In this document: piece by piece, positions 1 through 52,086 of the stretch
How the letters are laid out: each line of letters begins with the position of its first letter
How positions within the stretch are numbered: the stretch's first letter is position 1
Program-made: the position numbers and the translations under genes
Notes under the pieces: model-generated
The model's database searches: none
Told to the model about the DNA's origin: nothing
Seen by the model: only the letters and a program-made list of their open reading frames with translations
Assembly: GCA_013153895.1 (NCBI GenBank)
Contig: JAADDN010000168.1
Coordinates: forward strand, 17,049-81,048
Reading direction: 5' to 3'
Length of the DNA stretch: 64,000 bases
DNA from: Thermoproteota archaeon
Lineage (GTDB): Archaea > Thermoproteota > Thermoprotei > Thermoproteales > Thermocladiaceae

Positions 1-3000
1 TTGTTCCTCAGAATAACTGCATATACCTTCTTCATTACGAAGAATCCTCTAGGAACAGAAAGTACAGTAACATTTACAGTCGTTCCAGTACGTAGACCAG
101 TGACGACAGCTATACCGCTCTTGTTCGTCTCTTTAATAATCTTCCTGGATCCATATATCACTGCTAGCTTGACATTACTTACAGGCTTCTTATCTACTGG
201 ATTCACCGTATATATTACCAGGATAGCCGTCTTGTTAACTGTTGGTGGAGGTGCATATGTAGGTATTATATATTTCAGATATATTCCATGTGTAACAACT
301 ATATTGCTCCATGAATGAGTAAAGACTTTTCCATCAACATGTGCAACAACAGTAATATTTATACGCACTCCAGCTTTCACATACGTCTCATACTTTCCTT
401 CACTGTCCGTCTTTCCACTTATTTTTCCTCCACTACTTGTCACTATCGTTACATCGGCTCCCTGGAATGGTGTACCATCCTCATACATTACCATAACAAT
501 TACAGGATACTTACTCACATGTCTACCCGTTACTGCTGGAGGTGCTCCACCTCCTCCAGTTACTCCTCCCCCACTTACTCCTCCACCTCCTCCACTGATC
601 GATATTCCTCCATTGCTTACAAGTGCTACATTTATTATAGTTGTCCTATTTGTTACATATATTGTTGATTCATATGGTGAATAACTATCATATGATACAT
701 CTATCTCATATTTATTAAACATTTTTACTATGAATACAGCTATTCCACTCGTGTTCGTCTTCTCACTCTTTATCTTTACAAATCCAGGTAATGCATATAC
801 TGTCACTGTTGCATTGGCAATATTCTTTCCACTATATGGATCATATACATGTACTATCAAGAGAGCTGGTCCATGTTTTGCAGGTGGTAATGTGACCCAT
901 GTCTTATATATGTCATTGCTTTTTACTGCGTCATATTCTGCATGTATTATCTTTGCTACTACTATAAGTATAGTATTGTTATATTTTGCTGATAATATAG
1001 GAAGATACTGCAGCATCTTAGACACAACACCTGCAATAGGTACTCTAGGACTAAGAGTAACATGGTCTCCATATGCTGTAAAGTTGACTGTAGCGTTCCC
1101 AAGATCATAGGCTATGTAGAGGCTACCATTAATGTTTGCTCCTAGATAGAAGTGGAAGAGAACACTGACGTTCTGTGTGACAGTGCTATACACGGCTACA
1201 CGTACATCATGTGGAATAGTGCTATAGGTCAATGAGCCATTTATGAAGATCCTCACAATACCTACATCTAGTGGCAATGTTCTCCATACTGTGAAACTAT
1301 ATACGCTACCTGGAACTAGGTAGCCTCCACCTAACTGAACTATGAGGCTTCTATTATAGGTTATGAAGTAGTCCAGTGTCATGTTCCTAAACTTTCTAGT
1401 ACCGTTCAGATTGAATAATGAACCATAGTGTACATATGCTTGCCATATTGTACTGTTACCAAATATCATACCTATCTTCTTTTCAAGACTCTTATTCACC
1501 CATGCTATACCACTCATAGCTGTCTTACCAATCTTCCAGTAATACTCAATGAAATATGCAGGAGATGGAATAGCAAAGATACCAATCTTCTCGACCCTGA
1601 ATACTGTGTTCTTTGGAGCCTTCTTCGGAGGATAATACACTAACTCGCATCTGTATCCTGCCTTGCTCATGTTTCCATAACTTACAGGTGTGCAATTTCT
1701 AATAAACAGGAACGTGGTTATCACCTTACCGTTAATAATAAAGTGTTGTAACCCAGTAACAATAAACCTTCTTAAAGGAACACTGAAATATATTGTACAT
1801 TCCGCATAATGTTTCTCAGGCACACATGTCACATTACTGATCAAGTTACCGTACTTAACCTTCAACATATTCTCAACTATCTGTGCAATAACTTTCGGAT
1901 CCTTAATCACATTATATTTAATGTATATTGCTGCAATGTGTGTAATAGCTCTGAATCCATCATAGAAATATGTTGGATTTGTATGAAACACATTATGAAG
2001 ACCCGCATATATTAACTGCCCTAGAGCACCGAAGAACCCCTGCGTATATGTAGTGAAGACAAATACTAGAGTGCCCGTTCCAAGTATCTCATCTGGATAT
2101 AGTGGTCCACTATCAGTCTCTATTACATAGGACCCATTTACTAGACGTATCGCTAAACTGCCAGCAAACCTGTAATAGCCTGGTGTGTTACTGCTAGTTA
2201 TTACATGTGTAGTAATTATATCATAGAGAAGCTTCTTCACATCATCTGCCGATACTCCACGTATCCTTACTGCTAGGTTATTCTGTATCTTAGATATTAT
2301 ATCGTTTAAATGATCACCAAAAACCATATATATACCACAATGTGTTCCGCTTGGTGAATATGCACCCCAACATGCATCTACTAACACATATGGTATTGTT
2401 ACGACACCATAGAACACTGTTCTTCCAAAGATCCACTCTGGGTGATATATCGCGTTTCCAACAACGTCTCCTAGAATTATTGCGAGAGTAGCTATACCTC
2501 CTGCCTGTGCGAGCCTACTTCCAAGTATCTCCTGTGCTATCTGTCTCAGTGTTATACCTGGAAAGAGCGCCGATATTGAGAATGTGACTCCAATCTTCTT
2601 ATGTTCTTTCTCAAATTTCTTGAGTATCTTGTCAATGTACTCTCCTTCTGCTGCTTTCATCCAGTACTTCCATATTCCTAATGCTCTGCTTCTAACATTG
2701 TCTAGATATGCTCTATTACTCATCAATCTATCCCACATTTTTATACAGTCCTTCTTTGTCATGTTCTCTCCAAGACATATCTTAACTATATCAACAGCAT
2801 CGTGATTAAGAACAGACATAACAACAGCCTTCCATAATGGAGCTAATCCACGTGGGAATCCTATAGGTAACGCAGTAAGGTACCGCCATGATGATCTTGG
2901 AACAGGAAATACACCACCAATAGTAACAACAGGATCGCCCTTACCTGGAGATACTGCAGGCTCAACAAGCTTGAGCTTATCTGGATGATCAATCATATTT

Positions 3001-4763: not shown

Positions 4764-4802
4764 GTTTTTAAGTTGGGTTTTTGGGTTTTAATTTCTTATG
4801 TT

Positions 4803-7448
4803 TTATGTTTGTTTGAACATTTTTCTTCTTTTTTGTGTTATTATGCTTGTTTTATGTGCTAGGAGTATCAGTATTATGGCTATTATTGTTAGTGTGGCTA
4901 TTCCTGTTATTATGATTATTGGTGTTTTTTTCTGTGATATATTTATCTTTATTTTCATGTTACTGTTCTCAAATATTGTGCTGTTTCCTGCTGTTTCAAG
5001 TATTATTGTTCTGTTACATGATGGCATGGTTAGCATGAAGTTTCCATGTTTGTCTGTTCTTGTTGTGTTAATTATCTGTCTATTATTGCAGTATTCTACT
5101 GCTCTTATCTCTATGTTGGGTATTGGTGTAGCATTGTAGTCTACTACTGTTCCATTTATTACTACTTTTCCATTTACTGTTCTTGTTTTAACATTTTTAA
5201 ATATTAATGATACCTTATATATGGCTATTATAGTCATATTGTTTGGTTTCATTATTACTATACTTGTCTTATTTGCTAGTGGTAGCCCCAGCTTAAGTAC
5301 TCCTGCATGTACTGTCTTCTGTAGTGTTATGTTTGTTCCTGGGCACTTCCATATATGTAATATCTTTATTATTCTTCCTAATGCATCGCGTATTATTATT
5401 GTTAGGTTGTAGAGGTCCTCTATTATTGTTCTGTTGCTTCTGCAGTATACTTCTGCTATTGTCTTATTTTTTAATAGTAGTTTACATTTTCCTTCTATTA
5501 TACCTATTTTTGGTGGTAATGTACCATTTATGATTAGAGTGTAATTCGTAGAGTTTGCTAGTACTAGTGTCTTGGCGTATGGATAGATCTTTACTAGTGG
5601 TATCAGGGTAATGTTTATTGTAGCATTTGCAAGTATTGTTCTCTCTCCCTTATACGTTACTATTCTATGGATGTTGCATCTTGGTATTACTGTCACATTC
5701 ATATGAAAAGCATCTATTCTTGCTTTAGCTATACATATAGGTACGTGTATGAAATGTATCTTTATTGTCCAGTTTCCAGCTGTGAGGTTTGCTAGTCTAA
5801 TTATCTTCAGACACTTCAGTTTAATTGCCCTTCCACAGCATTCTGCATATATAGTTCCATGACATATTGGTGTTATAATGGTCATATTTGGTATAACGGT
5901 TTTTAGTCCTGTAGCTAGGTAGCCGAGAACTACGTTTCTTAGGTCTCTGTAATATACTGTTAGTATTGTTGGTCTTCTCACTATGAAGCATATCTCTGGT
6001 CTGTGAATGATGAGTGTCCTGTTTGTAACTACTTTCCATGTCTTGTTAATGTATTCTGCTATTACTATTCTTGGGTTAAATAGTCTGAACCATCTGTTTA
6101 TTAGACAGATATGACTCATGTTTGCTACTGTGTAGGTAGTGTTGAATCTTACTTCTCTACCGTCTATATATATTATTGTGTTGTTATATATATTATATAT
6201 CTTTCCTGCTATGTTTGGTACACCCATTAGATCTTTAATGTAGCATTCTATTGTTCCTTCTACAGGTTCCCAACATTTCTTCTCTCCTTTCGCCATTCTT
6301 ATTGTTGTGTTAATGTTCTCTGGATACCATATATGTCCATATGTTCTTATCCATGTAGTATTTATTCCAAACATCATTCCACAATATATCCATCTTGATC
6401 CATCATAGATATCGCATGGCACGTTCATTGTCATGTTTTTCATAAATGTAAACCACACTCCATTTATTGATAAACTGCCTCTTGACCATGTTGTCGCGTT
6501 TATTATGACCCAGATATAGCTAGTGAATACAGGTGAGTTAATTCTGGCTCTGTTGCCACAGTACTCTTTTATGGTTCTGTTGCTCAGCATAACTTTTACA
6601 CATATTTGATATTTGATGGATCCTCCTACTGTAATGTTAGCAGTATAGTTTATTAGTCTCATTATATATGATGGAAGGTATAGTAAATATTCTAGTATTC
6701 CCTCATTTAAATATCCTGACTCGTTATATGTGTCTATTAGTGCTACATAATCAATATTAACATAGTATGGATATTTAACATTGGTATAATTGTAACATAT
6801 CATCGTCATATTTATCTTACCAGTATAGTTAAGTGCTGGTACATGTATCCAATAGATCTCCCTTGTATTTGTCAGATTAATTGTTCGTAGGAAAGTCTTC
6901 TCTGGATATGTCATAGATAGGTTACATGCATATCCTATACTGCTTCCACCTACCGCTATTATTAGCCATGTCTTTTCTGTCTTTGATAGATATGGCTGTC
7001 TTACTTTGAAGACTAGTAATATTGTCTTGTTTGGACTATCTATCATATATTTGATATATTTTCCATCTAGCTTCCATATTAGACTGGTATTGAATATTCC
7101 TGTACTACTAATGTTTGTAATAGTTATTGATGGTATATATGTTATGTTTACTTTCCTTGAATAGAGCTCTATCTCATATATTCCCTGTTCTGGTGAATAT
7201 ATTGGCGCTATATTTGGCATCCCAGTCCTATAACTAATTTTTGTGTTCATTGGTGGAATAAAAAGAACATTATATATGAAGGTCAGATTGTATCTGAACC
7301 CGTTAGGTATGTTCCATGTCACAACTATTGGCGTCGCTATGTTAGATGGTAGTGGCTGTATTACTCTTATCTGTGCATTAACCATGCATGCTATAGCTAT
7401 TGCCAGCGCTAGCACTAGTATTAGACCTATCTTACCTATCTTATCCAT
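4803..7448 (-). CDS. Type I membrane glycoprotein (881 aa), surface or envelope protein
   Basis: Signal peptide MDKIGKIGLILVLALAIAIACMVNAQ. C-terminal TM helix IIIITGIATLTIIAIILILLA followed by a basic tail ending QKRRKMFKQT. Very many N-x-S/T sequons. CarboxypepD_reg-like segment VVINGTVVDYNATPIPNIEIRAVEY...TDKHGNF. Confidence 0.85.
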   Translation of the reverse strand: MDKIGKIGLILVLALAIAIACMVNAQIRVIQPLPSNIATPIVVTWNIPNGFRYNLTFIYNVLFIPPMNTKISYRTGMPNIAPIYSPEQGIYEIELYSRKVNITYIPSITITNISSTGIFNTSLIWKLDGKYIKYMIDSPNKTILLVFKVRQPYLSKTEKTWLIIAVGGSSIGYACNLSMTYPEKTFLRTINLTNTREIYWIHVPALNYTGKINMTMICYNYTNVKYPYYVNIDYVALIDTYNESGYLNEGILEYLLYLPSYIMRLINYTANITVGGSIKYQICVKVMLSNRTIKEYCGNRARINSPVFTSYIWVIINATTWSRGSLSINGVWFTFMKNMTMNVPCDIYDGSRWIYCGMMFGINTTWIRTYGHIWYPENINTTIRMAKGEKKCWEPVEGTIECYIKDLMGVPNIAGKIYNIYNNTIIYIDGREVRFNTTYTVANMSHICLINRWFRLFNPRIVIAEYINKTWKVVTNRTLIIHRPEICFIVRRPTILTVYYRDLRNVVLGYLATGLKTVIPNMTIITPICHGTIYAECCGRAIKLKCLKIIRLANLTAGNWTIKIHFIHVPICIAKARIDAFHMNVTVIPRCNIHRIVTYKGERTILANATINITLIPLVKIYPYAKTLVLANSTNYTLIINGTLPPKIGIIEGKCKLLLKNKTIAEVYCRSNRTIIEDLYNLTIIIRDALGRIIKILHIWKCPGTNITLQKTVHAGVLKLGLPLANKTSIVIMKPNNMTIIAIYKVSLIFKNVKTRTVNGKVVINGTVVDYNATPIPNIEIRAVEYCNNRQIINTTRTDKHGNFMLTMPSCNRTIILETAGNSTIFENSNMKIKINISQKKTPIIIITGIATLTIIAIILILLAHKTSIITQKRRKMFKQT

Positions 7449-10655: not shown

Positions 10656-11516
10656 CTAGCATATTTCAATGCTTAGATTCTTATCAAGCAGATCAAAGTT
10701 CTTGTACACCATGTTTCCACATATGCCTCTTCTAATAGCCTCCTCCATGATCTTCATATGGTTTCCCACACGCAGCTTCTTTGCAAGTACAGCAACTAGT
10801 AGATAGGTTAGGCACTGTATTGACTGGTAGTGGTACTCTCTTACTGTCCTGTTCTTTAATAGTGTAATAGCTATCTTATATATTAATGGTCTAAATTGTT
10901 CATCTACATATTTAACTGCTTCTTCAAGTATTGGAACATACATTATCTCTTCTTTTATATATTTTGTAAACATTTTCTTTGCTTCTGGAAAATATTTATG
11001 ATCTACCCTTATCTTCTTCAGAATATATGTCATAGTCTTATAATGTATTCTAATCTTCTTACTATACTGTACATATAGTATCATCATTATCTTAACAAGT
11101 TTAAGCGTTCTCGTAGGGTCTCTAGTCTCATGTAGGAGACTTTCAACTATTTTTCTAAACGTTTCTAGTGGAATGTCAGATGTCTCTACCCTAATGTTCA
11201 GCATCTCGTTATATGCTCTCAGTGTTGATTCTAGTGCTGTGTCAAGTATTCTCCTTACCTCGTCTTCAAATGTTCTTATTCCTATCTTCTTCTTCTCCTC
11301 TATACTTATCCTGGATCCTATCATTGTTACCTTTGTTCTCTGTATATGCATACGTGCTAGATATTGTTCTGGTGTATATGCTCTTGGTTCTGGATGTTCT
11401 ATGTCTATTACTCTCTCCTGTATCACTGTTCCACAGTTTGTACATATGTATTCTCCTCTCTCTATGTCTAGTACTATTCTATCTGATCCACAGTATGGGC
11501 AGCGTTCTACTGCCAT
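10656..11516 (-). CDS. tfb: Divergent transcription factor B (TFIIB-like)
   Basis: N-terminal zinc ribbon CPYCGS...x...CTNCG, followed by IDIEHPEPRAY (B-reader/linker position) and about 200 aa of helical, cyclin-fold-sized region. GGAG lies 5 nt upstream of the ATG. Confidence 0.75.
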   Translation of the reverse strand: MAVERCPYCGSDRIVLDIERGEYICTNCGTVIQERVIDIEHPEPRAYTPEQYLARMHIQRTKVTMIGSRISIEEKKKIGIRTFEDEVRRILDTALESTLRAYNEMLNIRVETSDIPLETFRKIVESLLHETRDPTRTLKLVKIMMILYVQYSKKIRIHYKTMTYILKKIRVDHKYFPEAKKMFTKYIKEEIMYVPILEEAVKYVDEQFRPLIYKIAITLLKNRTVREYHYQSIQCLTYLLVAVLAKKLRVGNHMKIMEEAIRRGICGNMVYKNFDLLDKNLSIEIC

Positions 11517-11924: not shown

Positions 11925-13532
11925 ATGTTTAACATGGGTCATCTCCGCCATGATCAGGAGAGAGCGGTTTCACATGTATTAAAATGTCTTGAGAGGAGGA
12001 GGGTGACTGTTCTTAGGGCTCCTACAGGTTTTGGAAAGACTCTTACTGGGATCGAGATTGCTAGGAGGTGGGGTGAGTCTACTGTTGTAGCGGTTCGTAC
12101 TAGGAATCAGCTGTCTAGATATGTTGAGGATATGGTATTATTCTATAATGATGTTCCTAGGATTCTTCTTAATAGATTGTTAACATGTTTTAAATATGGT
12201 AGTAACTGTAAGTCATGCTTGTTTAACAATGTTCTTGATAAGAAGGTAATTATCAGTAATAGACTATTTGATCCATATAGTAGAGATGTCTTATACTTTT
12301 TCAGGAGTAGGGGAGCATGTTTGTATAGGTCTTTCACGTCTATTGACTCTAATCTGACTGTCTGTACGTATCCTTTCATTATTCATTCGCGTCTTCGTAG
12401 GAGGATTGGTTCTCCTTCTCTGTTGATTATTGATGAGGCTCATAATATTGAGAATATTACTTCTATTGTCATAGATGTTAATAGGGTTCTGAGATTGTTA
12501 TCAATGTTTCTTGATGTTGTTAAGAGGAGGAGAATACGTGATAGTATGGTTCTTCACTGTATGAATAATGTGATGACCTATATACGGTCTGTTAAGAATC
12601 TTGATCATGTTAGGGAGATTCTTACATGTCTTGAGACAGTTTTCTCGCGTCTCTTCTCTGATTCTTCTCCTCCTCTAGAGCTTGCTGAGCTTTTTGTTGA
12701 GGTTTGTTCATGTTTTGAGACTGTTCTTGAGATGGGTCTGGACTATATTACATATGATAATAACATGTTAATGTTTAGGACTCTTGATCTTGAGATGATT
12801 GGAAGGTTTCTAGAGCAGTTTGATAGGGTTGTCCTCATGTCTGCTACCCTGCCTGATAGATGGTTTCTGCGCCAGGTATGGGGTATAGATGATGTTGAGG
12901 TTATAGATGTTGATTATAGGTATGATAATATTTCTATAAGTATTATACCTGATGTCACGTCTAGATTCTCTAGACGTAGTGTAGAGATGTATCGTTCTAC
13001 TGCTGCTATTCTTGATCGTATAGTGTCTAGGGCTGATAAGAATGTTCTGATCTTCTTCCCATCATATGAATATCTTAGAAACACGGCAAGACACATGAGG
13101 ACCAGGATAGAACAGGTATCAGATATAGGCGAGGCTGTTAAGCTTGCTAGAGAGGGAAAACATGTATATGCAGATGTCATCGGTGGAAGACTTAGCGAGG
13201 GTATAGAGCTTGTGGATAGGGTGAGGAGGACTCTACTTGTTTCTGATCTAACTGTTGTTGGGATACCATATCCAAAATATGATGAATATATGAGAAGACT
13301 GTTGAAAAGGCTTGAAGATAGAGGCATAAGACCAGAAGTATATCTAATAGAGAAGGCTTGGACTGGTGTTAGACAGGCGATAGGTAGAGCATGTAGGTTA
13401 GGATATAGTGGGCATGTAAGAATATGGCTTCTAGATGAGAGGTATAGGTCTGAGATATGGCTTAGAAAGATATATACATTGAGTAGAGATGTTAGGATAG
13501 TACCTGCATGTTCTATAATAGGTCTATCTTAG
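11925..13532 (+). CDS. XPD/Rad3/DinG-family SF2 helicase
   Basis: Motif I APTGFGKT, motif II IIDEAHNIE (DEAH), motif III MSATL, GRLSEGIEL, motif VI QAIGRACR. Four Cys between motifs I and II (TC..NCKSC...AC) fit an FeS domain. Confidence 0.85.
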   Translation: MFNMGHLRHDQERAVSHVLKCLERRRVTVLRAPTGFGKTLTGIEIARRWGESTVVAVRTRNQLSRYVEDMVLFYNDVPRILLNRLLTCFKYGSNCKSCLFNNVLDKKVIISNRLFDPYSRDVLYFFRSRGACLYRSFTSIDSNLTVCTYPFIIHSRLRRRIGSPSLLIIDEAHNIENITSIVIDVNRVLRLLSMFLDVVKRRRIRDSMVLHCMNNVMTYIRSVKNLDHVREILTCLETVFSRLFSDSSPPLELAELFVEVCSCFETVLEMGLDYITYDNNMLMFRTLDLEMIGRFLEQFDRVVLMSATLPDRWFLRQVWGIDDVEVIDVDYRYDNISISIIPDVTSRFSRRSVEMYRSTAAILDRIVSRADKNVLIFFPSYEYLRNTARHMRTRIEQVSDIGEAVKLAREGKHVYADVIGGRLSEGIELVDRVRRTLLVSDLTVVGIPYPKYDEYMRRLLKRLEDRGIRPEVYLIEKAWTGVRQAIGRACRLGYSGHVRIWLLDERYRSEIWLRKIYTLSRDVRIVPACSIIGLS

Positions 13533-15926: not shown

Positions 15927-17315
15927 TTATTCCTCTACTAGTTCTTTCACTGTTCTAATTTTTACTGGTCTGCTGAGTCTCTGGTACCAGTCTCCTCTAA
16001 CCACATTTGCATAATGTCTCAATGTTTCTATCATTGCTTCCCATGATCGCACGTCTAGTAGCACGACGGTGTGCTCCATGTCTCTCCTCCTGTTTGATCT
16101 ATAGTATGACTGTACGTTCACTGCATTGTTCATTATCCGTACCATGTCATATGCTAGGTCTAGATCATCATCACAGTATCCATGTGTCATATACGTAGGG
16201 TCTGCTCCTGTAGGTGTCTGATATAGGCAGAAGATGATGTCTGTATCTGGTAGTGATACTCCTCTGAACCATCTTCCACGTGTTGTCCATATTATTACCT
16301 GTATGTTCTCACCATAGTGTGGCGGTTCTCTACATGATACGTCGCTTCTCACATCTATTCCACGTTCTCTCAACATTTCTTCCAGTCTAAGAGTTATCTG
16401 ATAGTTCTTTGACGCTATTCCAATACTTTTACCCCTATCTACGAGATCTATAACAGTCTCGGCTAGCTCAGGTACCCATCTTGAGGGGCTAAGGTATTTT
16501 CCTGCTCTCTGCTCTATGCCTTCTATACTTGAGAGGTACTGTGGATAGAGCGCATATCTGTCAAGTACCTGTGCACGTATCCCAGCGTAGTATATTGTAT
16601 ATGTCTGTGGAATATTGAAACATGATATGACACGTGGATGCAGTGTAGCAGAGATGAGAACTGTCAGCCGACCTAGAGGAAGCTCAGGACGGTAGAAGTA
16701 GAGGTTTCCGAACTGTATCACGGAACGGAGCACGCGTCTAACAACCTCTCTCCAGTATCTGTCCCTTCTCATGTTTCTTACAGCATGTTCAAGCTCTCTC
16801 CTGGTGAATGCGAGTCTATATAGGTCTGCTAGACTGTCAGCCTCATCTATGACTAGTATAGTACGGTTAAATACTCTACTATTCATAAGATAGAGAACAT
16901 AGAGAAGATTATGAGTCATAACCCATATATGTCCACTACCCTGAAAGAACTCACGTATCTGAGACCTGAACTCGCAGTACGATTCTCCGCATTCACCACA
17001 TGTACGTACAAGATTGTAAAGATATTCAAGAATGTTAGAGCAGTCATGTATGCTATCTCTAACATGTGGACAAGTCTCCTCCTTGCTCCTAATCATCTCT
17101 GCACTATATCCTAGCGATGGTATATACCTCTCCACAAGCCAGTTACGTAGACTACGTAAAGGTACAGAAACTATTAGCCTAGTACCTAGTGCCCTAGCTA
17201 GAAGAATCATAGAGTAGACAACAGTCCTAGTCTTCCCACCACCTGGAAGACCATAGATATTTAATATCTTGTTTCCAAGCCTATACATTGCTATTAGTGT
17301 CCTAGCATTAAGCAT
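15927..17315 (-). CDS. Second, more divergent Rad3/XPD-like SF2 helicase
   Basis: Walker A GLPGGGKT, Walker B LVIDEADSL, ISATL, RGVSLPD. Cys cluster CPHV...DC...CGECGESYC between motifs I and II. Confidence 0.8.
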   Translation of the reverse strand: MLNARTLIAMYRLGNKILNIYGLPGGGKTRTVVYSMILLARALGTRLIVSVPLRSLRNWLVERYIPSLGYSAEMIRSKEETCPHVRDSIHDCSNILEYLYNLVRTCGECGESYCEFRSQIREFFQGSGHIWVMTHNLLYVLYLMNSRVFNRTILVIDEADSLADLYRLAFTRRELEHAVRNMRRDRYWREVVRRVLRSVIQFGNLYFYRPELPLGRLTVLISATLHPRVISCFNIPQTYTIYYAGIRAQVLDRYALYPQYLSSIEGIEQRAGKYLSPSRWVPELAETVIDLVDRGKSIGIASKNYQITLRLEEMLRERGIDVRSDVSCREPPHYGENIQVIIWTTRGRWFRGVSLPDTDIIFCLYQTPTGADPTYMTHGYCDDDLDLAYDMVRIMNNAVNVQSYYRSNRRRDMEHTVVLLDVRSWEAMIETLRHYANVVRGDWYQRLSRPVKIRTVKELVEE

Positions 17316-18477
17316 TTATGACCACCTTCAAAGCATTAACAAGAATGTCAGGGCTATTTACAACAAGAGCAGACACCTTCCTAGCAAGAGTACTAGTACA
17401 GTAACATGGAACGAACCTCCCCGTAAGAGCATTACCAAGATATATCGGGCATATTCCCTTATAAGCAAAACTGTATGTACCCCTGAGAACATTATACCTA
17501 AGATTGTTCTCGGGAGGAGTCCTACAGATATACTCCTCCCCATTTACAGTATATCTCAAACGTTGAACAATACTAAACAGCTGATCCTCACTTAACCCAA
17601 CAATCTTCAAAGCACCTAGAAACTCAACCTCAAAAACCGTATGTAATCCACGTGGTATAGATGTGGGATATGTTATAGATGGAAGCTCTATAGGTCTATT
17701 ATTTATGAGACATGTAACATAGTACCTCGTACATTCACCACATCCAGCAGCAGAAAAACAGAGCTGAGCATAGACTAGAGCCCTCTCAAGAGGGAGAGAA
17801 GTCACAATCCTCCTGACAGGACCAGGAGCCTCAGCAAGCTCTACCCTGCCCTCGATCCGTTCAACATATGTACCATAGCACACATCCTCTACAGCACGTA
17901 CAAGCATTTTCAAACGATCATAAACATCTCTAAGACACTTCTCAACACTTTCAATACCAGTCCTACTAACCTTAACATAGTGAAGCACCTCCCTACCACC
18001 ATCATACTCTATGACCAGCCTAGACGGATAAGTAATAACATAACCAAAAGTCTTATTATCAAAAACCCCTTTAACACCAGTAAACTTCCTAGCCAGATCA
18101 AGCTCATCCCTCTCCAATCTCGTGACAATATGGTACCCACCTGTAGCAGTAACCTCAACAAAAACCTCATCAGGACTAAGAAACCTCCATATCAGATCAA
18201 TAGGAACCCTAGCATCAAGATCAAGAATAAATAATCTAGAAGGAGCACCAGCAACACCAAAAGCAGAACAACCAGCACAGACACGCCTAACAGCCATCTC
18301 AGAAACATCACTATACAAGACAGCACAATCATAACAGTACCTCAACCCCCTAGGAACAAGAGGACACTTCGCAACCGCAACAGCCTCCTCACGACTACAC
18401 CCCCTACCAAAACCCCTAACAGGAACCAGCATGAAACCCTTATTAAACAGCTCCCCCACAAAATCACAGAGACCCAT
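17308..18477 (-). CDS. Archaeo-eukaryotic primase superfamily prim-pol
   Basis: LFILDLDARV (DxD) and VEVTATGGYHIV (sGGxH) in the order expected for the Prim-Pol domain. Its 3' end overlaps the helicase start by 8 nt. Confidence 0.75.
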   Translation of the reverse strand: MGLCDFVGELFNKGFMLVPVRGFGRGCSREEAVAVAKCPLVPRGLRYCYDCAVLYSDVSEMAVRRVCAGCSAFGVAGAPSRLFILDLDARVPIDLIWRFLSPDEVFVEVTATGGYHIVTRLERDELDLARKFTGVKGVFDNKTFGYVITYPSRLVIEYDGGREVLHYVKVSRTGIESVEKCLRDVYDRLKMLVRAVEDVCYGTYVERIEGRVELAEAPGPVRRIVTSLPLERALVYAQLCFSAAGCGECTRYYVTCLINNRPIELPSITYPTSIPRGLHTVFEVEFLGALKIVGLSEDQLFSIVQRLRYTVNGEEYICRTPPENNLRYNVLRGTYSFAYKGICPIYLGNALTGRFVPCYCTSTLARKVSALVVNSPDILVNALKVVINA

Positions 18478-19812
18478 CAGAAACAGAAGAAGAGAAAAAA
18501 TAAAAACAAAACACTAAACACCAACACACAGTAATAACCCAAAAAACAACAGAAAAATACACCAAGGAACAAAACAACAAACCAAAACAAAACACCACAA
18601 AAATGCGAGTAATACCCACAAAATAAAAACACACCAAGGAACAAAACCGAGTCACACTCCACATTCTCCCCCAGTTCACAGACTAAACCACCCACCAAAA
18701 CTATACACTCTTTCCACACAACACCAAAACTTGTGAACTCCCAACCTCCCTACTTCGCGTAAGTATCTCCCCCGCTACATTAAATACGAGTGCGCCCCCG
18801 CCTTCACGGGTTGTGGAAAATCTCGCAAAATAACATCTCTCTACATGTCAAAAATAAACGATTAAAAACCAATTATGATAATGCTCACACAGACTTAAAA
18901 TAACAATAAAACACAAAAACATACAACCTTAAAAACCCAAAAGAAAAAACATCAACACACAACAAAAAACAATAAGACACAACAGAACAAGATACTTCAT
19001 ACCCCACATTTAGATACCAATAACATGAAAACGAGACCTTCACACCATATATTCTACAAGGCTACCATAAACTCCACAAGAAAACAAACAACTCCACAAG
19101 AAACATCATTACAAAAATCAATTAGCCCTAATTGACCAATGCATTACTCATCAATTAGAGATGCATTATGGTAGAATTGAAATATTAATGCATTCTCAAT
19201 TGACCACCAATTAACCCCCCAGCCGAGAATACATTAACTCTCAATTGAAGCTAATGCATGAAGAATAGAAACAAAATCACAGAAAGTACATGACAAGACC
19301 AAACACCCTAAAAAGAAAACAACACTCCCAAACCAGAACACCTGTGAAAAACATATACGTAATACCACACAAAAATACAAAAACAAACTTAATTAAACAG
19401 CAAAATAATAAATTAAAAAGAGAACGAAACAACACACAGAGGTTTTCTAAAGACAAACCATACACAACTACACAGAAAACAGCAGAAAACAAGTAAAACC
19501 AATAGAATAAATATACCAATAAACCATAAACTCTAGAAAACAAACAGCACTAGAAAACTAATAACATTGATAAAACATGTATAAAAACAATCAAAACAAT
19601 ACACCACACCAGACAGAATAACCATACAATAGACCACGTCGAAGATTATAACTCAAAGTAATACTACAATTTAAGAATAGAAAAACATAAAACATCATAA
19701 AAATACATTAAAACAATAATAACCATATATAGGTAATAAAGATCAAAATAAGACATAAATAAAGTAAAAAGATATAAAAGAAGACTAACATACATGAAAG
19801 AACATATGTACC
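18478..19812. other. Non-coding arm, extremely A+C-rich on the + strand, with short internal repeats and ATGCAT/CAATTG motifs
   Basis: Positions 18481-18540 contain 51/60 A+C (counted). ACACCAAGGAACAAAAC occurs twice, and AACTCCACAAGAAA occurs twice in tandem near 19069-19104. AATGCAT occurs near 19138, 19187 and 19253. Confidence 0.7.
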
Positions 19813-20277
19813 TTATTGACGGCTTTTCAATATATTTATCCATGGATTATCCATTAAGTCCATTAGAATGTTATTATCATGTTTCTTCTCTGTATTACTC
19901 TCATTTTTATACTCTATCTTTTCTATACGTTCTCTAATGTATGATTTATCTATTTTTGATGAAAGTTCTTCAATTTTTCTTTCAAGAATTTCAATCCTAT
20001 TTTGTAAACTTTTAACTATAGTATACATATCTATACTAGACCTATCTTCTACATACATTGCAGTATTATTCACATCTCTACATGATAGTATTTTTCTGAG
20101 GTATGAAGTATCTAGCCTAAATGCTATATCTCTCATAGTTTCTAAACCTAGATGATCTATAAGCAGTTTCACTATTTCCGCACCAAGTTCTATGATTCTA
20201 CTCTGAGAAACATGCAACATATCTGCTAACTGTTCTATAAGTTTTTTAGTATGCTCTCTTACTGTTAGTGTAGGCAT
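19813..20277 (-). CDS. Ribbon-helix-helix (CopG/Arc-like) DNA-binding protein with a coiled-coil C-terminal half
   Basis: MPTLTVREHTKKLIEQLADMLHVSQSRIIELGAEIVKLL fits a strand-helix-helix pattern. It is the only normal-composition ORF inside the 3.6-kb gap. Confidence 0.65.
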   Translation of the reverse strand: MPTLTVREHTKKLIEQLADMLHVSQSRIIELGAEIVKLLIDHLGLETMRDIAFRLDTSYLRKILSCRDVNNTAMYVEDRSSIDMYTIVKSLQNRIEILERKIEELSSKIDKSYIRERIEKIEYKNESNTEKKHDNNILMDLMDNPWINILKSRQ

Positions 20278-21082
20278 GTATATTATAGATATATGAGATA
20301 TATAAACATTCTTGATTAATCATGAAAGATGAGATTGATAATATTCATAAAATATATCTAAATTATATTTATCATGTAGACGTGTCGTCGTTCAACGTAT
20401 TACCGTACTAATATGATTCTATGTTTCTATTTCTAGAATATTGTTACATGTTTGATATAGTAGTTATAGATGGTTTTTGAAGGTTTATCTATATTATTTA
20501 GAATGTATATAAATGATGTGACTGACCAGGTAACAGAGTTGGTAGGGGTCTAGGACTACCTCATAGGATGGAATTGTTCTTCATTTTTTAATTGTTAATC
20601 TATGTATCTATATGTACTATAGGTTACATTTATTTTGTCTAGTTTTTAGACGTGGTTAAAATATTTATTTTCATGTATATACTTGTTACCGTGTTTTGTA
20701 TTATTTTCAGTGTTTTTAGAACGTTCTTATCAGTGTATAATATCTATTATCTATGCTATGTTATATGTATTATGATTATCTGTGTATATTATTCTCTTAT
20801 TATAACATGTTTGGGAGCTAATTGAAACTAATTGAAGTGAAGTTGGGTATTTTTCATGTTTTATATGTTCTATGTTTTTGTGTGTTGTTTTATGTGTTTT
20901 GTTGTTGTTTGATTGGTTTTTCTTTGGTCTTGGTTCTGTTTCTGGTCTGTGCTTGTTTTTGTGTTTTTGTCTTTTAGGATGGCATTTAATTGGACATGCA
21001 TTATATGTATTTTTATGTTGTTTTATGTACTTAATTAAACGTTAATTGATTTCTTGTTCCTGTTCTGTGATTTATTTTTGAT

Positions 21083-21121
21083 GGTTTATGTATTTTTGTG
21101 ATATACATTAGGGGTCAATTA
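21083..21121 (+). repeat. Iteron-like module, copy 1
   Basis: GGTTTATGTATTTTTGTGATATACATTAGGGGTCAATTA. Confidence 0.7.
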
Positions 21122-21243
21122 ACGTATGATTAAGTGTGTTAGTATTTATAAAAATACATTTAATGCATGCTCAATTAGGTCACTGGGTCTGAGTCTACGT
21201 GTCCGTTGGCTGTGCATTATGGTGTTAATATGTGATTATTATT

Positions 21244-21274
21244 GTATTTTTGTGAGATACATTAGGGGTTAATT
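21244..21274 (+). repeat. Iteron-like module, copy 2
   Basis: GTATTTTTGTGAGATACATTAGGGGTTAATT matches 21090-21120 at 29 of 31 positions (counted). Confidence 0.7.
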
Positions 21275-21315
21275 GGTCATGGTCCTATGTGGTAGTTGGG
21301 TGTGTTCTGATTGTT

Positions 21316-21334
21316 CAATTAGTCCCTAATGTAC
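21316..21334 (-). repeat. Inverted copy of the TACATTAGGG-N-CAATT core
   Basis: The reverse complement reads GTACATTAGGGACTAATTG. Another inverted core, CCTAATGTA, lies at 21507-21515. Confidence 0.6.
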
Positions 21335-21847
21335 TTGATAAAAGGTTATTGATGTATGTTTTTGGTGACCATAATGTATGGCTAATTATGTGTATGTTTT
21401 TGATCTTTTGTTATCATGTTTATTCGTTTAATGCATCTGCGGTTAGCTGGACTCTAGTGCAGCTAGTTATTTTATGTGTATTTATAACTTTTTATGATGG
21501 GGACGACCTAATGTATCCATGATGTGGTATTTTTCTCAAGTACATTGATATAATATAGGTTATAGATGTTTGTTATTGGTGTTTAATGTTTAGATGTTAG
21601 GTGATATGGAGTTGAAATGGGGGTTATAGAATTTCTATGTATTATTATACTGTTATGGTTATTAATGTTTTCTATTGTTTTTTATGTTTCTTAATTACTG
21701 GGTTTTCACAAGTTTTCTAGTTTGTGAATTGTTTCAGAATTTAAAATGTATAGTTATGTTGTTTTTTATATTTTTATGATATATGTCTGATATGTTTGTA
21801 TGTGGTTTATTGTTTTTGGTATCATGTTTTTGCTCTGTTTTTGTGTT

Positions 21848-21880
21848 GGTTTATGTATTTTTGGCAGGTACATTAGGGAG
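21848..21880 (+). repeat. Iteron-like module, copy 3 (more diverged)
   Basis: GGTTTATGTATTTTTGGCAGGTACATTAGGGAG. The first 15 nt are identical to 21083-21097. Confidence 0.6.
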
Positions 21881-22133
21881 TTTTGGAACAATAGTATTTG
21901 TTATTGTGTTTTTATGTTTTTGTTTGGTGTTTTGTGTTGTTTTTCGTGTTTGTGGTTTATTGTTTTTCATTGTTGTTTTGTTTTCTTTTCTATGTTTTGT
22001 TTCTCGGTTTTATGTCAATGTACTTCAGATTTTTGTTAGTGTTCTTGTGCTTCTAATGTGTTGGGGATCTGGCTGCAGGTAGTGCGGCTGTGCTGTATGT
22101 TCCTATTATTAATCTTGTTAGTTAGATAGTTCT

Positions 22134-22640
22134 ATGAGGCTGTATGTTCCGTCTAGTCTGGATGAGGCTAGGAGTGTTGTTCCTGGGATTGATGAGGAGA
22201 GGTTCAGGAAGTGGAGGCGTGAGGGTGCTGTTGAGCTTGTTCTTGAGGAGGTTTATGAGGTTGATAATGGGTCTGCATATGTTTTCAGGGATCGTACGGA
22301 GCTTGCATTGACGGGTCATAGGGTTGAGCTTGTTGAGAGGAGTGGACGTTCTATCTATGTTCTATGTCCTGATGCTGTGTATGTGCTTGTTACTGAGAGG
22401 ATTAATGTTCCTAGGAGGCTTCTACCTATAGATTTTAGACCGAGGTCAAGTATTGTACGTGCGGGATGGAATATTGCTACTGCTAATATTGATCCAGGTT
22501 TTAGAGGGAGGCTAATAGTTACATTATATACAGGGAGCAGAGTTACATTATATCTAGAGGATAGATGTAGAATAGTCCAGGTAAGGTTTCTCGAGCTGGA
22601 TAGTGAAGTAGAGGGATATTCAGGTCAGTGGAATGAGTAG
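22134..22640 (+). CDS. dCTP deaminase/dUTPase-family enzyme
   Basis: NIDPGFRGRLIVTLYTGSRVTLYLEDRCRIVQVRF matches the DPGF(R/K)G...Q signature of the trimeric dCTP deaminase/archaeal dUTPase family. Confidence 0.8.
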   Translation: MRLYVPSSLDEARSVVPGIDEERFRKWRREGAVELVLEEVYEVDNGSAYVFRDRTELALTGHRVELVERSGRSIYVLCPDAVYVLVTERINVPRRLLPIDFRPRSSIVRAGWNIATANIDPGFRGRLIVTLYTGSRVTLYLEDRCRIVQVRFLELDSEVEGYSGQWNE

Positions 22641-23001
22641 GAGATATACTACTATAACAGTTGAACGTGAGGTGAAGGAGAAGCTTGAGGAGATTATACG
22701 GGAAGCTGTCGGCGAGGTCTCATGGAACGAGCTGTTTAGGAAGATGGTGAGCAATAGAACGCTTACATTATCCTATATTAGGAAGCTGTATGCAGGCATA
22801 GTAGAGGAGGATCTTCTAAAGATAATGGTAAACATAGTAGAACTGTTATATATATCAATGAGGAAGAATGGACAGTTAAAAGATAAGGAAACTAGAATAC
22901 TACTATATTTAACGGTTAGAAATATTAGAGAGAAATTGAAGGAGCATGGTATGGAGGATGAACGGGTAGAGAGAATATATGAGGAGCTTACAGGAAGCTA
23001 A
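22633..23001 (+). CDS. Hypothetical protein, possibly with an RHH-like N-terminus
   Basis: ATG overlaps the end of the dUTPase gene. TTITVEREVKEKLEEIIRE has a strand-helix pattern. Confidence 0.6.
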   Translation: MSRRYTTITVEREVKEKLEEIIREAVGEVSWNELFRKMVSNRTLTLSYIRKLYAGIVEEDLLKIMVNIVELLYISMRKNGQLKDKETRILLYLTVRNIREKLKEHGMEDERVERIYEELTGS

Positions 23002-23309
23002 TCACTATAGAACATTGGTCTAATCTTCTCACCGATCTCAACATCTTTAACATGTCTCTCAACTACTATAAAGCTCCTAGACTCCTCATCATATATAGCT
23101 ACGAACCTCGTAGGATGAAGCTCATGAGAGATAAATGCAGCAGCCCAGGGAACCCTAGTAACTATACAGTATCCCCTGTTAAGCGGTAGCTGTCTAAGCT
23201 CTCTCTCAAGATACTCGAAGACTTCCCTAGTAGGCTGTAGCTCTCTATCATTAACCTCTATAACTGTACATGGTTCTGCTGGTATTATCCTGAGAAGGTT
23301 CCTCCTCAT
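22998..23309 (-). CDS. Divergent Csx3-like protein (second copy)
   Basis: VTRVPWAAAFISHELHPTRFVAIYDEESRSFIVVERH aligns with the ISGRGPxWL...FVAVYDPR...VVV core of Csx3. It is the last gene of the operon with 23351-23641. Confidence 0.55.
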   Translation of the reverse strand: MRRNLLRIIPAEPCTVIEVNDRELQPTREVFEYLERELRQLPLNRGYCIVTRVPWAAAFISHELHPTRFVAIYDEESRSFIVVERHVKDVEIGEKIRPMFYSD

Positions 23310-23350: not shown

Positions 23351-23641
23351 CTATTCTAGCTTGAACATCTGTCCTCTCATTGGTCCTGAAGTTACTATAC
23401 AGGCATTCATTCTCGGCTCATATGTTGCAACTATGTCACCCTCCTTAGCAAGCTCTATGCTGAGAGCAGAGTATAGCCATACTGGTCCTCTCCCTGATAT
23501 GCATACTGGCTTCTCGCTCTTTATCTCAGGCATTGACTGTATCACCTCATTAAGCTCTGATGGCTCTAGTATTCCACCCTCTATCTCGAACTTCAGTAGT
23601 AGAACATTCTTCTTGTCCTCGACCTCCCATCTAACTGGCAT
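23351..23641 (-). CDS. csx3: Csx3 (Crn3-type cyclic tetra-adenylate ring nuclease) homolog
   Basis: 96 aa. KFEIE, CISGRGPVWLYSAL and VATYEPRMNACIV are collinear with A. fulgidus Csx3 as I recall it (HFEIE, ISGRGPIWLHCFL, VAVYDPRLGAVVV). Confidence 0.75.
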   Translation of the reverse strand: MPVRWEVEDKKNVLLLKFEIEGGILEPSELNEVIQSMPEIKSEKPVCISGRGPVWLYSALSIELAKEGDIVATYEPRMNACIVTSGPMRGQMFKLE

Positions 23642-23666: not shown

Positions 23667-24305
23667 TTAAGAATTATCTCTGTTTCTCATCTTCTCCTCA
23701 TCATATACGAACATTACTATCCTCATTGTCAGCCTGTTAACAGCATCTTTAAGAGGTAGTGGTGGACTAGGAGCATTCTCTCTTGTGAGACCAGTAAGAA
23801 TACATGTACCTGTCTCAAAGTCTACTCTCGGCTCTCCCTCTAGAGCTGACTCGCATATAGCTACTATATCTACGTTAGGAGTCCTCGATTTTATCTGGTT
23901 AACCCATCCCATCACACAGCTCTCAAAGTCATCTCTCCTGCATAGCACTATGACGCCATCAACATTTCTAAGAATCTTCTCGTTCTCAGCTGTTACTCTT
24001 ATAGGAGGCTTTCCTCCTCCTATATCTACTATAACAATATCAATATTATTATTCTTTCTAAGACCCTCCAATGATCTGACAATCCATTCAAGCTTCTTCT
24101 CAACATTCTGTCTAGATATCTCTTTCAACCTAGTCCTAAGCTCCTCTCTAAGAGACTCTAAGTACCAGGGAGGAGTAGGACTATATAGCTCAGCATCTTG
24201 AAACATTGTTCTTATACCTGACTCTGCAAGTGTACGATATATTAAATGTGATAGAACGCTCTTACCAGTATTGGGATCACCTACAACACCTATAATCCTA
24301 GCCAT
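23667..24305 (-). CDS. P-loop NTPase (SIMIBI-like), possibly a Clp1/Grc3-type polynucleotide kinase
   Basis: Walker A VVGDPNTGKSV and Walker B-like VIVDIGGG. The kinase assignment is inferred only from resemblance to the GxxDxGKS...DxGQ pattern. Confidence 0.7.
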   Translation of the reverse strand: MARIIGVVGDPNTGKSVLSHLIYRTLAESGIRTMFQDAELYSPTPPWYLESLREELRTRLKEISRQNVEKKLEWIVRSLEGLRKNNNIDIVIVDIGGGKPPIRVTAENEKILRNVDGVIVLCRRDDFESCVMGWVNQIKSRTPNVDIVAICESALEGEPRVDFETGTCILTGLTRENAPSPPLPLKDAVNRLTMRIVMFVYDEEKMRNRDNS

Positions 24306-24339: not shown

Positions 24340-25476
24340 ATGAGCTTCTACCCTACAGAGCAGGAGAAGGAGAGCATACGTGTAATGATAGATGGACTGA
24401 TAGATCTGTTGAGAAGAGAGCTGGAGAGGAGAGGAGTACGGTTCTATAAGATAGTTCCAGGAGGCTCAACAGCACAGGGAACCTTCCTACATGGTGATCA
24501 TGATATAGATATTTTCATAGTAACATCAGAGCCAGACAGAGCAATCAGAGTAGTCAGAGAGCTGTTTCCAAGAGGAGTCGAGAAGAAGGGAGAGCTAGAG
24601 ATATGGAACACACATGTAGACGATTATAATATTGATATAGTAGCAGTTAATCCAGAAACCGTAGAAAGATGGTTCACACTTAAACATACTGAGATCTATT
24701 CAAAGATGAGTAATGAACAGAAAAGAATAGCGATAGCACTGAAGGCACTGTTCAAAACATGGTGCGCATATGGAGCAGAGAACGGGGGAATAAGTGGAGT
24801 AGCAGTTGAGGAGCTCGTGAGAAGATTCACAGAGCCAGGAGATACCGTAGACAGAGGAATAGTCAAAGTATGTGAACAGATAGTCATACATGAAGAACCA
24901 TTCTGGCTGCAGGACCCAGCAGCAGAGAGACATGGAATACCTAGGAACCTCCTAGCATCAGTAGTAGAAGAAAAGTGGAGCCTACTACAGAAAGCGTGTA
25001 TAGAATATTTCAACACACGTCAGATACCATATACACCACCAGGAGCGGAGAAATATAGATTCATAAGAGAAAGCGAGGGATGGAAAACAATACAGCTAGA
25101 ATCAACAGGAAACAAGCACCTAGACTTCCACAAGACCAGAAGCATCTGCATAACATACTGTAACAAGCTGAGAAACAGTGAAAAAGATGTACAAGAATGC
25201 ATCTGCGACTCATATAGCGATGGAAAGAAGGTGATAGTAGCAGTAAAAGTACCAGAACAGTTACCACCATATAGGACAGTCTGCATAGAGCCTTGGAAGA
25301 TAGGTAGAGAAGCAGTAGAAAATTTCATAGAAAAGCATCCAGATTATTATATAGATAATTATGGTAGAATATGTACAACAGTACCAAGAAAAATAACAAG
25401 ACCATTCGAATATATTAAACAAAACATAGAGAAAGAATGGGAAAGATATCTAAAAGAGAAGACAAGACACAGCTAG
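24340..25476 (+). CDS. cca: Class I (archaeal-type) CCA-adding tRNA nucleotidyltransferase homolog
   Basis: GGSTAQGTFLHGDHDIDIFIV (GS...DxD), IDIVAV, ERWFTLKHTE, ALKALFKTWCAYGAENGGISGVAVEELV and FWLQDPAAERHGIPRNL are collinear with A. fulgidus CCA enzyme motifs. Confidence 0.75.
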   Translation: MSFYPTEQEKESIRVMIDGLIDLLRRELERRGVRFYKIVPGGSTAQGTFLHGDHDIDIFIVTSEPDRAIRVVRELFPRGVEKKGELEIWNTHVDDYNIDIVAVNPETVERWFTLKHTEIYSKMSNEQKRIAIALKALFKTWCAYGAENGGISGVAVEELVRRFTEPGDTVDRGIVKVCEQIVIHEEPFWLQDPAAERHGIPRNLLASVVEEKWSLLQKACIEYFNTRQIPYTPPGAEKYRFIRESEGWKTIQLESTGNKHLDFHKTRSICITYCNKLRNSEKDVQECICDSYSDGKKVIVAVKVPEQLPPYRTVCIEPWKIGREAVENFIEKHPDYYIDNYGRICTTVPRKITRPFEYIKQNIEKEWERYLKEKTRHS

Positions 25477-52063: not shown

Positions 52064-52086
52064 CCCTAACACTCATCTACGGTAAC

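Follow-up and report, generated by a model that had tools for sequence, protein, structure and literature searches.

The immunity region of phage lambda carries the cI gene between PL/OL and PR/OR, with the replication genes downstream of PR, and the firing of the lambda origin depends on transcription. Archaeal origins of replication have origin recognition box (ORB) or mini-ORB elements beside orc1/cdc6, and a low-GC intergenic origin has reportedly been proposed for STSV1. In vertebrates, promoter-proximal strand asymmetry is strongest in the first 1-2 kb after the start, and the immunoglobulin switch regions are kilobase-long, non-coding, degenerate tandem repeats with a G-rich non-template strand. 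Two studies describe the vertebrate promoter-proximal asymmetry as C>T and A>G changes being in excess on the non-template strand (PMC2927911, PMC10030826). Two further studies describe how, in vertebrate mitochondrial DNA (mtDNA), the strand that is single-stranded for longest turns G+T-rich through C>T and A>G deamination, with gradients that are strongest at third codon positions (PMC3269015, PMC8565317). In SSV1, the small ribbon-helix-helix (RHH) type repressor F55 has 11-nt sites, several copies of which lie in the divergent early promoters and in its own promoter (PMC9608457). Here, we analyse a region of 3.6 kb (positions 18478-22133) in a 64-kb stretch of archaeal DNA, referred to as the window, in which a 154-aa central gene and an AT-rich centre are enclosed by two non-coding arms of mirror-image strand composition. 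All coordinates are those of the window, which is part of contig Ga0072504_101352 (JGI metagenome 3300005095; 90,945 bp; contig coordinate = window + 17,382), and the sample was taken from a sulfide chimney at a deep-sea hydrothermal vent (PMC7329443); one source attributes the proteins to the metagenome-assembled genome of a 'Crenarchaeota archaeon'. Because of its gene content, described below, the sequence points to a large (at least 91 kb) virus-like mobile element of a hyperthermophilic archaeon, rather than to a chromosome.

The mirror-image strand composition of the arms, which was the central claim of the original prediction for this region, is real: the arms lie 5-6 SD away from the remainder of the contig. 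The left arm (18478-19812), whose outward strand is the - strand, has on the + strand the composition A.506, C.234, G.091, T.169, that is, 74% A+C, or 74% G+T when read outward; the right arm (20811-22133), whose outward strand is the + strand, has A.196, C.081, G.221, T.502, that is, 72% G+T. On recount, the reported values of 51 A+C in the 60 nt at 18481-18540 and 56 G+T in the 60 nt at 21901-21960 were reproduced exactly, and so were the AT-rich centre at 20278-20810 (GC 0.253, with 80-nt windows down to 0.17) and the G/C-rich island at 18740-18830 (GC 0.538). The genes that flank the arms are, as had been stated, transcribed outward: a 389-aa putative primase-polymerase (prim-pol) of AEP (archaeo-eukaryotic primase) type to the left (17308-18477, - strand), into which the arm bias runs on, and a 168-aa member of the dCTP deaminase/dUTPase family (DCD) to the right (22134-22640, + strand).

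The keto skew (G+T-A-C) was followed along contig positions 12185-90945, joined from three pieces and amounting to 78.8 of the 90.9 kb. In 500-nt intervals it reaches -0.56 (z=-5.9) and +0.54 (z=+5.1) at the two extremes, compared with a mean of 0.03, an SD of 0.10 and a range of -0.23 to +0.34 in the 287 intervals elsewhere. The sign changes at ~19,800-20,300. The onset on the left is sharp, at ~19,800, directly after the stop codon of the central gene, and on the right the skew climbs from ~20,400 and jumps at ~20,850; the dips within the region coincide with islands that carry specific motifs.

The mirror is one of composition and not of sequence, since the reverse complement of the left arm aligned with the right arm hardly beats shuffled sequences (z ~2.9). 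An inverted duplication or a junction of inverted terminal repeats was rejected, the best local alignment scoring 22 against 16.4±1.9 for shuffles, whose maximum was also 22. An assembly artefact was rejected as well, as the sequence is present in four independent assemblies, with strains L009, L010 and L011 at 98.6-99.6% identity. All comparisons between lineages rest on two of them, namely the lineage of the window with these three strains and a second one, L003. The periodicity of phased T tracts, examined as a sign of DNA curvature, was not significant, and no enrichment of G clusters or G-quadruplexes was found in the arms, where runs of at least three G number 11 and 14 against 11.2 and 13.2 expected. 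The right arm carries degenerate tandem repeats of ~20 nt. Runs of at least six T are 3-5 times rarer on the outward strand than composition predicts (2 and 4 observed against ~10 expected per arm), and runs of exactly T5 number 41 in the arms, those of T6 number 6, and no longer run occurs. Homopolymers are capped throughout the window: the ~50 kb of coding sense strand contain no T run of six or more (~16 expected) and only 6 such A runs (~54 expected). The ceiling on T runs in the arms fits a need for transcribability, for which it is weak support because the whole genome avoids homopolymers of six or more on both strands.

The bias does not end where the arms end. Start codons are no barrier to it: the third codon positions adjoining the arms are 88-96% G/T, and the bias decays over 0.15-2 kb into the flanking genes. 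Measured on the coding strand in successive 150-nt steps from the ATG, the third-position keto skew of the prim-pol gene is 0.88, 0.80, 0.80, 0.64, 0.52, 0.32, 0.48 and 0.55, that of the next gene is 0.32, 0.24 and 0.28 and then below 0, and that of the DCD gene is 0.92, 0.72 and 0.16. The L003 orthologues behave similarly, with 0.96 in the first 150 nt of the prim-pol gene and a quick fall thereafter, and with 0.76, -0.04 and -0.20 in the DCD gene. The central gene itself stays at ~0.03-0.08.

The direction of change was obtained from two strains, polarised with L003 as outgroup, over the prim-pol gene with the 190 nt upstream of it, the DCD gene and part of the DEAD-helicase gene (two transversions only). 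On the outward strand, 10 C>T and 9 A>G differences stand against 3 T>C and 3 G>A (19 versus 6) in a sample that is small and has a diverged outgroup, the likely polarisation error running the opposite way. This excess occurs despite C and A being the rarer bases on that strand. The composition bias of the arms is mutational (C>T and A>G on the 5'>3' outward strand) and position-dependent, because the G/T bias crosses start codons into synonymous sites and because the substitutions favour C>T and A>G. The general proposal of deamination-type change on the strand rich in G+T is supported by both the synonymous-site gradients and the polarised differences.

The description of the region as mostly non-coding also stands: the open reading frames (ORFs) of the arms fail coding tests, and the arms cannot be aligned between the lineages (~50% identity, which is near random for their composition), compared with 75-82% DNA identity in the flanking genes. 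The arm ORFs are confined to the G+T-rich strand, and several frames are open simultaneously because stop codons need A and are hence rare there. In the longest one (21783-22082), the strain differences are spread 2:5:3 over codon positions 1:2:3 and a frameshifting indel is found at 22063; most genes nearby have a strong third-position excess of strain differences (18 of 25 in the prim-pol gene), the DCD gene and one Csx3 gene being without it. In L003, whose prim-pol protein is 85% identical to that of the window, the order is DCD gene, G+T-rich arm, central gene, A+C-rich arm and prim-pol gene, with the same skew. The arms turn over fast, yet composition and layout are kept.

Some further differences between strains and lineages were observed. 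L003 has an additional 109-aa, inward-facing gene of normal composition (its positions 1367-1696, + strand) between the right arm and the DCD gene; after it, at 1120-1366, come densely arrayed repeats containing ATGCAT, which are absent from the window. Between the window and L009/L010 (9812-25894), strain divergence is a mosaic: the number of differences per kb is 0.6 in an XPD-like gene and 2.2 in the left arm, against 41 in the right arm and 21-25 in the prim-pol gene, the DCD gene and the genes to the right. This mosaic (0.6 to 41 per kb) indicates frequent recombination between co-occurring lineages, and for that reason the densities of strain differences cannot serve as rates. No tRNA genes and no Rfam matches at gathering thresholds were found in the window, and the region gave one match at chance level (E 0.91).

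A mirrored skew is what a bidirectional origin would leave, and the original prediction offered an origin, perhaps with its arms exposed in single-stranded form, as one of two readings, the other being a pair of long, UG-rich transcripts or leaders that do not code for protein. The skew is not specific to an origin. The cumulative GC skew falls to ~19.8 kb, stays flat to ~35 kb (lowest at ~34.8 kb) and then rises; it tracks gene orientation, and the cumulative TA skew has only a local notch. A cumulative analysis of this kind had been suggested as a check, and its outcome goes partly against the origin: it does find a local switch and a GC-skew minimum at ~19.8 kb, but that minimum is broad (20-35 kb) and there is no replicon-wide switch. 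The switch at the region is local. The same coding-strand G+T signature (positive GC and TA skew at third codon positions) is found in other transcription units, namely 11925-13532 (+), 58518-59902 (-) and 62544-63953 and onward (+), and in the strongly affected units outside the region the third-position keto skew is 44-60% on the coding strand. The first of them, the XPD-like gene (11925-13532, +), is situated to the left of where the origin was proposed and has the "wrong" sign of skew for a replication effect, and the divergent neighbours of such units are not mirrored.

The asymmetry is tied genome-wide to transcription starts, because 25 other units of at least 900 nt, in both orientations, show a 5' excess of G+T: their third-position keto skew is 0.20 in codons 11-110 against 0.03 beyond codon 200 (Wilcoxon p=7.5e-6), the + units (n=13) and the - units (n=12) both showing the effect. 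Three distant relatives show the same promoter-proximal trend, which is not significant (n=9, p=0.10). This looks like a promoter-proximal mutational gradient acting throughout the genome. From the broad skew minimum, the other affected units and the promoter-proximal effect it follows that, of the two readings, outward transcripts or leaders fit better.

The central gene (19813-20277, - strand) encodes an orphan protein of 154 aa, is of normal composition and is a candidate for a DNA-binding regulator. The N-terminus of the protein fits a strand-helix-helix arrangement, after which come a coiled coil and, at the C-terminus, a conserved tail (DNPWINI..SRQ); the L003 orthologue is 49% identical. 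A phmmer search against 1.84 billion representatives found only its own two lineages and no known repressor, Pfam and PDB gave no match, and PHROGs gave two weak matches of unknown function. A single-sequence AF2 model was poor (pLDDT 51), with helices at residues 6-21 and 25-43. The label RHH that had been given to this protein is therefore supported by a compatible predicted secondary structure and by no family or PDB match, and we regard the assignment as plausible. For residues 87-153, NCBIfam gives a weak match to arcadin-2, in its C-terminal part (E 6e-4; 1e-4 in a strain variant). This match scores ~20 bits where the cutoff is 290, is missing from the L003 orthologue and probably reflects noise from the coiled coil, although the tail could be filament-binding.

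The label prim-pol is putative as well. In the left flanking protein, D86 (in DLD), G113, G114, H116 and D140 are invariant across six homologues and fit AEP motifs, but no Pfam, PHROG, NCBIfam, PDB-sequence or significant fold match was found, and a profile of the six sequences gave nothing against PDB. Its AF2 model is poor in the N-terminal half; the best Foldseek match has E 0.1, and the NrS-1 prim-pol domain is among the matches at rank 29 (E 0.86). The distant homologues of this gene have no such arms beside them. The right flanking protein matches Pfam DCD with 44.2 bits (cutoff 27) and the NCBIfam dUTPase model with E 1e-15, which is below the cutoff of that model.

Repeated, partly palindromic motifs flank the central gene: TCAATTAG, AATGCATT and ATGTATTTTT..TACATTAGGG. 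Of the first of them, the region holds 7 copies, the remaining 60 kb of the window none and the corresponding region of L003 4. The left motif array (19118-19260) starts with the perfect palindrome TCAATTAG-cc-CTAATTGA at 19118-19135 and also contains copies of TCAATTR and of AATGCAT / TAATGYATT; it is a candidate operator or iteron array, L003 has an equivalent cluster at the same relative place, and the dip of the skew there suggests sequence constraint. Copies of AATGCAT / TAATGYATT and ATGTATTTTT are clustered on both sides of the central gene, at 19118-19260 and at 20819-21440. The right side holds in addition a 30-nt inverted repeat (20987-21016 and 21148-21177; 90% complementary) that combines the motifs TAATTG, ATGCATTA and ATGTATTTTT, and the 15-mer AAACGTTAATTGATT at 21037-21051, which is common to the window and L003. 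A repeat element of ~50 nt, D5, contains TTTATGTATTTTTG followed by (A)TACATTAGGG. Its first copy (21071-21120, + strand) has the near-consensus TATA sequence TTTATGTATTTTTG and GGGG 21 nt after the 8-mer; further copies lie at 21225-21274 (+) and 21316-21343 (inverted), and another at 21836-21885 (+), with TTTATGTATTTTTG at 21850-21863, ~270 nt upstream of the DCD start. D5 is a candidate dyad operator (ATGTAT-N-ATACAT) or a candidate near-consensus TATA box with a start at the G cluster, and L003 has GTATTTTTGTGAG elements in the same orientation.

Genes of this genome are typically leaderless and preceded by a TATA-like box at -32 to -22. Boxes of this kind, TTTTTATTTTTTCTC at 18492-18506 (-) and TATTATTAATC at 22104-22114 (+), are located ~30 nt upstream of the ATG of the prim-pol and DCD genes, respectively, and are candidate proximal promoters. 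At the inner edge of the left arm, where the skew sets in, CTTTTATATC at 19771-19780 (-) is a candidate outward start. The central gene has a predicted TATA box within 20288-20306 (-), and a rightward TATA-like box lies at 20585 (+), within the AT-rich centre; two more outward-facing boxes are at 21085 and 21850.

The left arm contains two islands. The first (18660-18880), which includes the GC-rich segment at 18740-18830, is of near-normal composition, the skew falling to ~-0.2; its L003 counterpart has a skew of -0.29, milder than that of the neighbouring windows, and no sequence match to it. Compared with shuffles, the predicted folding of the GC-rich segment as RNA is not better on the - strand (z +0.5) and modestly better on the + strand (z -2.9). 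The second island (18930-19105, - strand) is conserved, with 91% identity to L003 over 161 nt and 94% over 18982-19081, including ~75 unchanged nt. It matches the reverse strand of L003 at about 4880-5060, amid arms that are unalignable, and has a TATA-like AGAATATATGG at 19045-19055 (-), which makes it a candidate internal outward promoter or DNA-level element. Folding of the outward strand against shuffles and a search of Rfam gave no RNA-structure signal for it. The island also carries an ORF of 36 codons (19025-19135, +), the first 22 of which are identical between the lineages, and could be a DNA-level element or a recent recombination patch.

The explanation that we prefer, with belief and doubt about evenly balanced, is that the region is an early control region with outward promoters that drive untranslated arms, the non-template strand of which is deaminated. 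An orphan regulator gene would lie in the AT-rich centre between operator-like motif arrays and serve two outward gene sets, the putative primase-polymerase and a helicase leftward and the dCTP-deaminase/dUTPase rightward. The arms would be transcribed outward from promoters at their inner edges and from internal ones, so that the non-template strand would often lie open as a single strand, whether in transcription bubbles, in R-loops or where polymerases pause, and this exposed strand would be deaminated at vent temperatures, C to U and A to hypoxanthine. Free of coding constraint, the arms may have drifted to a mutational equilibrium of ~75-80% G+T, which motif islands would escape because proteins bind them. 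The mirror would then represent two transcription-start zones, the strongest in the genome, facing away from each other. The outward TATA-like boxes, which match the promoter pattern of the genome and are found both at the inner edges of the arms and inside them, support such a control region. The central protein probably regulates the outward promoters by way of the motif arrays. An origin of replication may be present in the AT-rich centre alongside the control region, though the skew does not reveal one.

Several points weigh against this explanation. The promoters are all predicted from sequence, and the fold of the central protein and the prim-pol identity also rest on prediction. Both flanking genes have a TATA-like box of their own at ~-30, which makes a 1.3-kb leader unnecessary, and the skew continues unbroken through these proximal promoters. 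The ~40 T5 runs on the outward strand are possible terminators for the archaeal RNA polymerase, the central gene is unskewed although it would also be transcribed, and the G clusters that favour R-loops are not enriched. Finally, outward replication forks, D-loops or error-prone outward synthesis predict a skew of the same sign.

These last processes belong to the strongest competitor, a replication origin, which we consider possible but rather doubtful. Initiation would take place in the AT-rich centre, with synthesis proceeding outward. In one variant, the strand that is displaced or acts as lagging template (+ to the right, - to the left) would, near the start, stay single-stranded in the bubble or in stable D-loops and become deaminated; in another, the first 1-2 kb would be made by a non-proofreading primase-polymerase, whose G:T mispairs would enrich the nascent outward strand in G+T. 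The AT-rich centre (GC 0.17-0.25), bordered left and right by iteron-like motif arrays, the adjoining putative AEP primase-polymerase and SF2 helicase, the agreement of the skew sign with outward forks and the local minimum of the cumulative GC skew at ~19.8 kb are all consistent with it. The unbroken passage of the skew through proximal promoters and start codons is also in its favour, as is the inward-facing inserted gene of L003, whose skew of -0.15 on its own coding strand (~1.5 SE) is what an orientation-independent process predicts. The genome-wide data argue against it: the GC-skew minimum is broad and lacks a replicon-wide counterpart, the TA skew has no V shape, and the signature is a general promoter-proximal feature that recurs in other transcription units, without mirror symmetry and, for XPD, on the wrong side. 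Moreover, neither a recognisable initiator (Orc1/Cdc6, Rep) nor an ORB element was identified, the motifs not having been compared with an ORB model; the prim-pol assignment is putative, and the distant prim-pol homologues lack such arms.

A related proposal, which we think unlikely, is that the arms are dedicated R-loop or single-stranded DNA (ssDNA) zones for a transcription-primed bidirectional origin, or else sacrificial spacers. In the former case, strong outward promoters would hold 1-2 kb of the non-template strand open to either side of the centre, and the adjacent primase-polymerase and helicase would use the open zones to begin bidirectional replication. In the latter, the arms would absorb hypermutation downstream of very strong early promoters at ~90 degrees C and thereby spare coding sequence. 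Transcription-primed initiation would unite the control region with an origin, which is speculation on our part.

Selection for GU-rich non-coding RNAs acting as decoys, regulators or scaffolds, in which selection on the RNA would keep the composition, is very unlikely. Composition and layout are indeed kept in two lineages despite the turnover of the sequence, and there are a conserved island of ~160 nt and repeated promoter-like elements, but selection on arm RNAs cannot explain the bias at synonymous sites of protein genes both near and distant; besides, the outward strand gave no folding signal and no Rfam match, and most of the arms is unconserved. We consider it highly improbable that the region is a partition (centromere-like) site, where the central protein would be a ParR-like adaptor bound to the motif arrays and linked to a host filament such as crenactin. 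The gene does stand between motif arrays, as the parMR promoter in parC does between iterons, and an N-terminus that fits an RHH, together with the coiled coil after it and a conserved C-terminal tail that contains Trp, is compatible with such an adaptor; so is the weak arcadin-2 match (E 6e-4, 1e-4), the last 17 residues of arcadin-2 binding crenactin in the way that ParR binds ParM. That match, however, has the low score and the absence from the L003 orthologue noted above, the phmmer search over 1.84 billion proteins gave no arcadin-like relative, no actin-like or ParA-like gene is adjacent, and the skew would be left unexplained. Arms coding for many small, very hydrophobic (V/F/L/C/G-rich) membrane peptides are barely conceivable and were rejected. 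In their favour are the ORFs of 30-99 aa on the G+T-rich strands and a 113-aa ORF annotated here by gene callers in L009 and L010; against them, multiple frames are open over one stretch for lack of the A that stop codons require, the longest arm ORF has the 2:5:3 spread of strain differences and the frameshifting indel, and nothing is conserved with L003.

The gene content from which the nature of the element was deduced includes several SF2 helicases (one of them XPD-like), a TFIIB-like zinc-ribbon protein, two Csx3 proteins, an anaerobic ribonucleotide reductase, the dCTP-deaminase/dUTPase, a subtilase, an AAA ATPase, a resolvase and many ORFans, as well as an 881-aa sequon-rich protein and a 2298-aa protein. 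No related records were found in the phage collection, IMG/VR or GTDB genomes, and a metagenome scan using the conserved island gave the L010 contig as its sole match. The TFIIB-like zinc-ribbon protein, the anaerobic ribonucleotide reductase (NrdD) and a GmrSD-N-domain protein are encoded at 10656-11516 (-), 50109-51998 (-) and 52048-53268 (+), respectively, a combination that is unusual in an archaeal mobile element. The gene of the 2298-aa protein (1-4763, -) extends past the left end of the window and gave faint Big_1 / CarboxypepD_reg matches; next to it, the gene of the 881-aa protein (4803-7448, -) encodes a product that is very rich in N-x-T/S sequons and has a membrane anchor at its C-terminus. 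Each of the two is probably a virion or surface protein. The stretch 1110-4798 was considered as a second non-coding region and rejected: it belongs to the 2298-aa gene on the - strand, and it looks free of ORFs in the ORF list because that gene runs off the window. Just to the right of the region are two tandem Cas_csx3 genes of the ring-nuclease type (22998-23309 and 23351-23641, -), whose neighbours are a P-loop NTPase-like gene (23667-24305, -) and a nucleotidyltransferase-domain gene (24340-25476, +). Together, these genes may form an anti-CRISPR module that degrades cyclic oligoadenylate (cOA).

Strand asymmetry is routinely used to call origins, and the textbook-looking mirror of this locus is better explained by mutation linked to transcription starts, so that the locus is a warning about skew-based origin calls in viruses and plasmids. 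The size of the effect is unusual: 88-96% G/T at synonymous sites, 75-80% G+T in non-coding DNA, and an influence on the first ~100 codons of other units. It suggests that promoter-proximal ssDNA at vent temperatures is a dominant mutational force on a viral genome. If this is true, it bears on how hyperthermophile viruses handle deamination, a dUTPase/dCTP-deaminase gene adjoining the region, and it offers a natural system for measuring ssDNA exposure in a hyperthermophile. Should the arms be ssDNA zones or spacers, they would be the strongest known natural footprint of deamination linked to transcription starts. The orphan protein and the specific motifs, in addition, form what may be a regulatory module of a group of large virus-like elements of archaea that is otherwise uncharacterised.

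In comparison with the known systems, the region resembles archaeal and viral origins in having an AT-rich intergenic stretch with repeats, placed between opposed gene sets and beside replication genes; it differs from them in that no ORB-like element or Orc1/Cdc6 was identified, in the lack of a replicon-wide switch and in its much longer arms. With the control region (D-loop) of vertebrate mitochondria it has in common the deamination-type G+T-rich strand and the third-position gradients, although the mitochondrial gradient spans the genome and follows replication, whereas the gradient here is local, mirrored and repeated at other transcription starts. The 5' gradient in 25 units and the two saturated arms with ~20-nt repeats recall the promoter-proximal and switch-region asymmetry of vertebrates. 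The magnitude, however, is far larger here (keto skew to 0.8) and T is enriched as much as G; unlike in switch regions, G clusters are not enriched, no AID-like enzyme is implied and transcription is predicted only.

Two early control regions are similar in the arrangement of the genes. Phage lambda is bacterial, with unrelated proteins, short operators and neither non-coding arms nor compositional skew, but it shares with the region described here a regulator gene set between operator arrays and divergent early promoters, and replication functions in an early outward unit. SSV1 lacks non-coding arms of kilobase length, and no extreme strand skew has, to our knowledge, been reported for it; there is no sequence similarity, and the protein here is a 154-aa orphan with a coiled coil whose binding is predicted only. 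What the region and the early control region of SSV1 (F55/Tlys; T5, T6, Tind) have in common is their design, in which a small gene whose product has an RHH-like N-terminus is accompanied by motifs in multiple copies and by gene sets that face outward.

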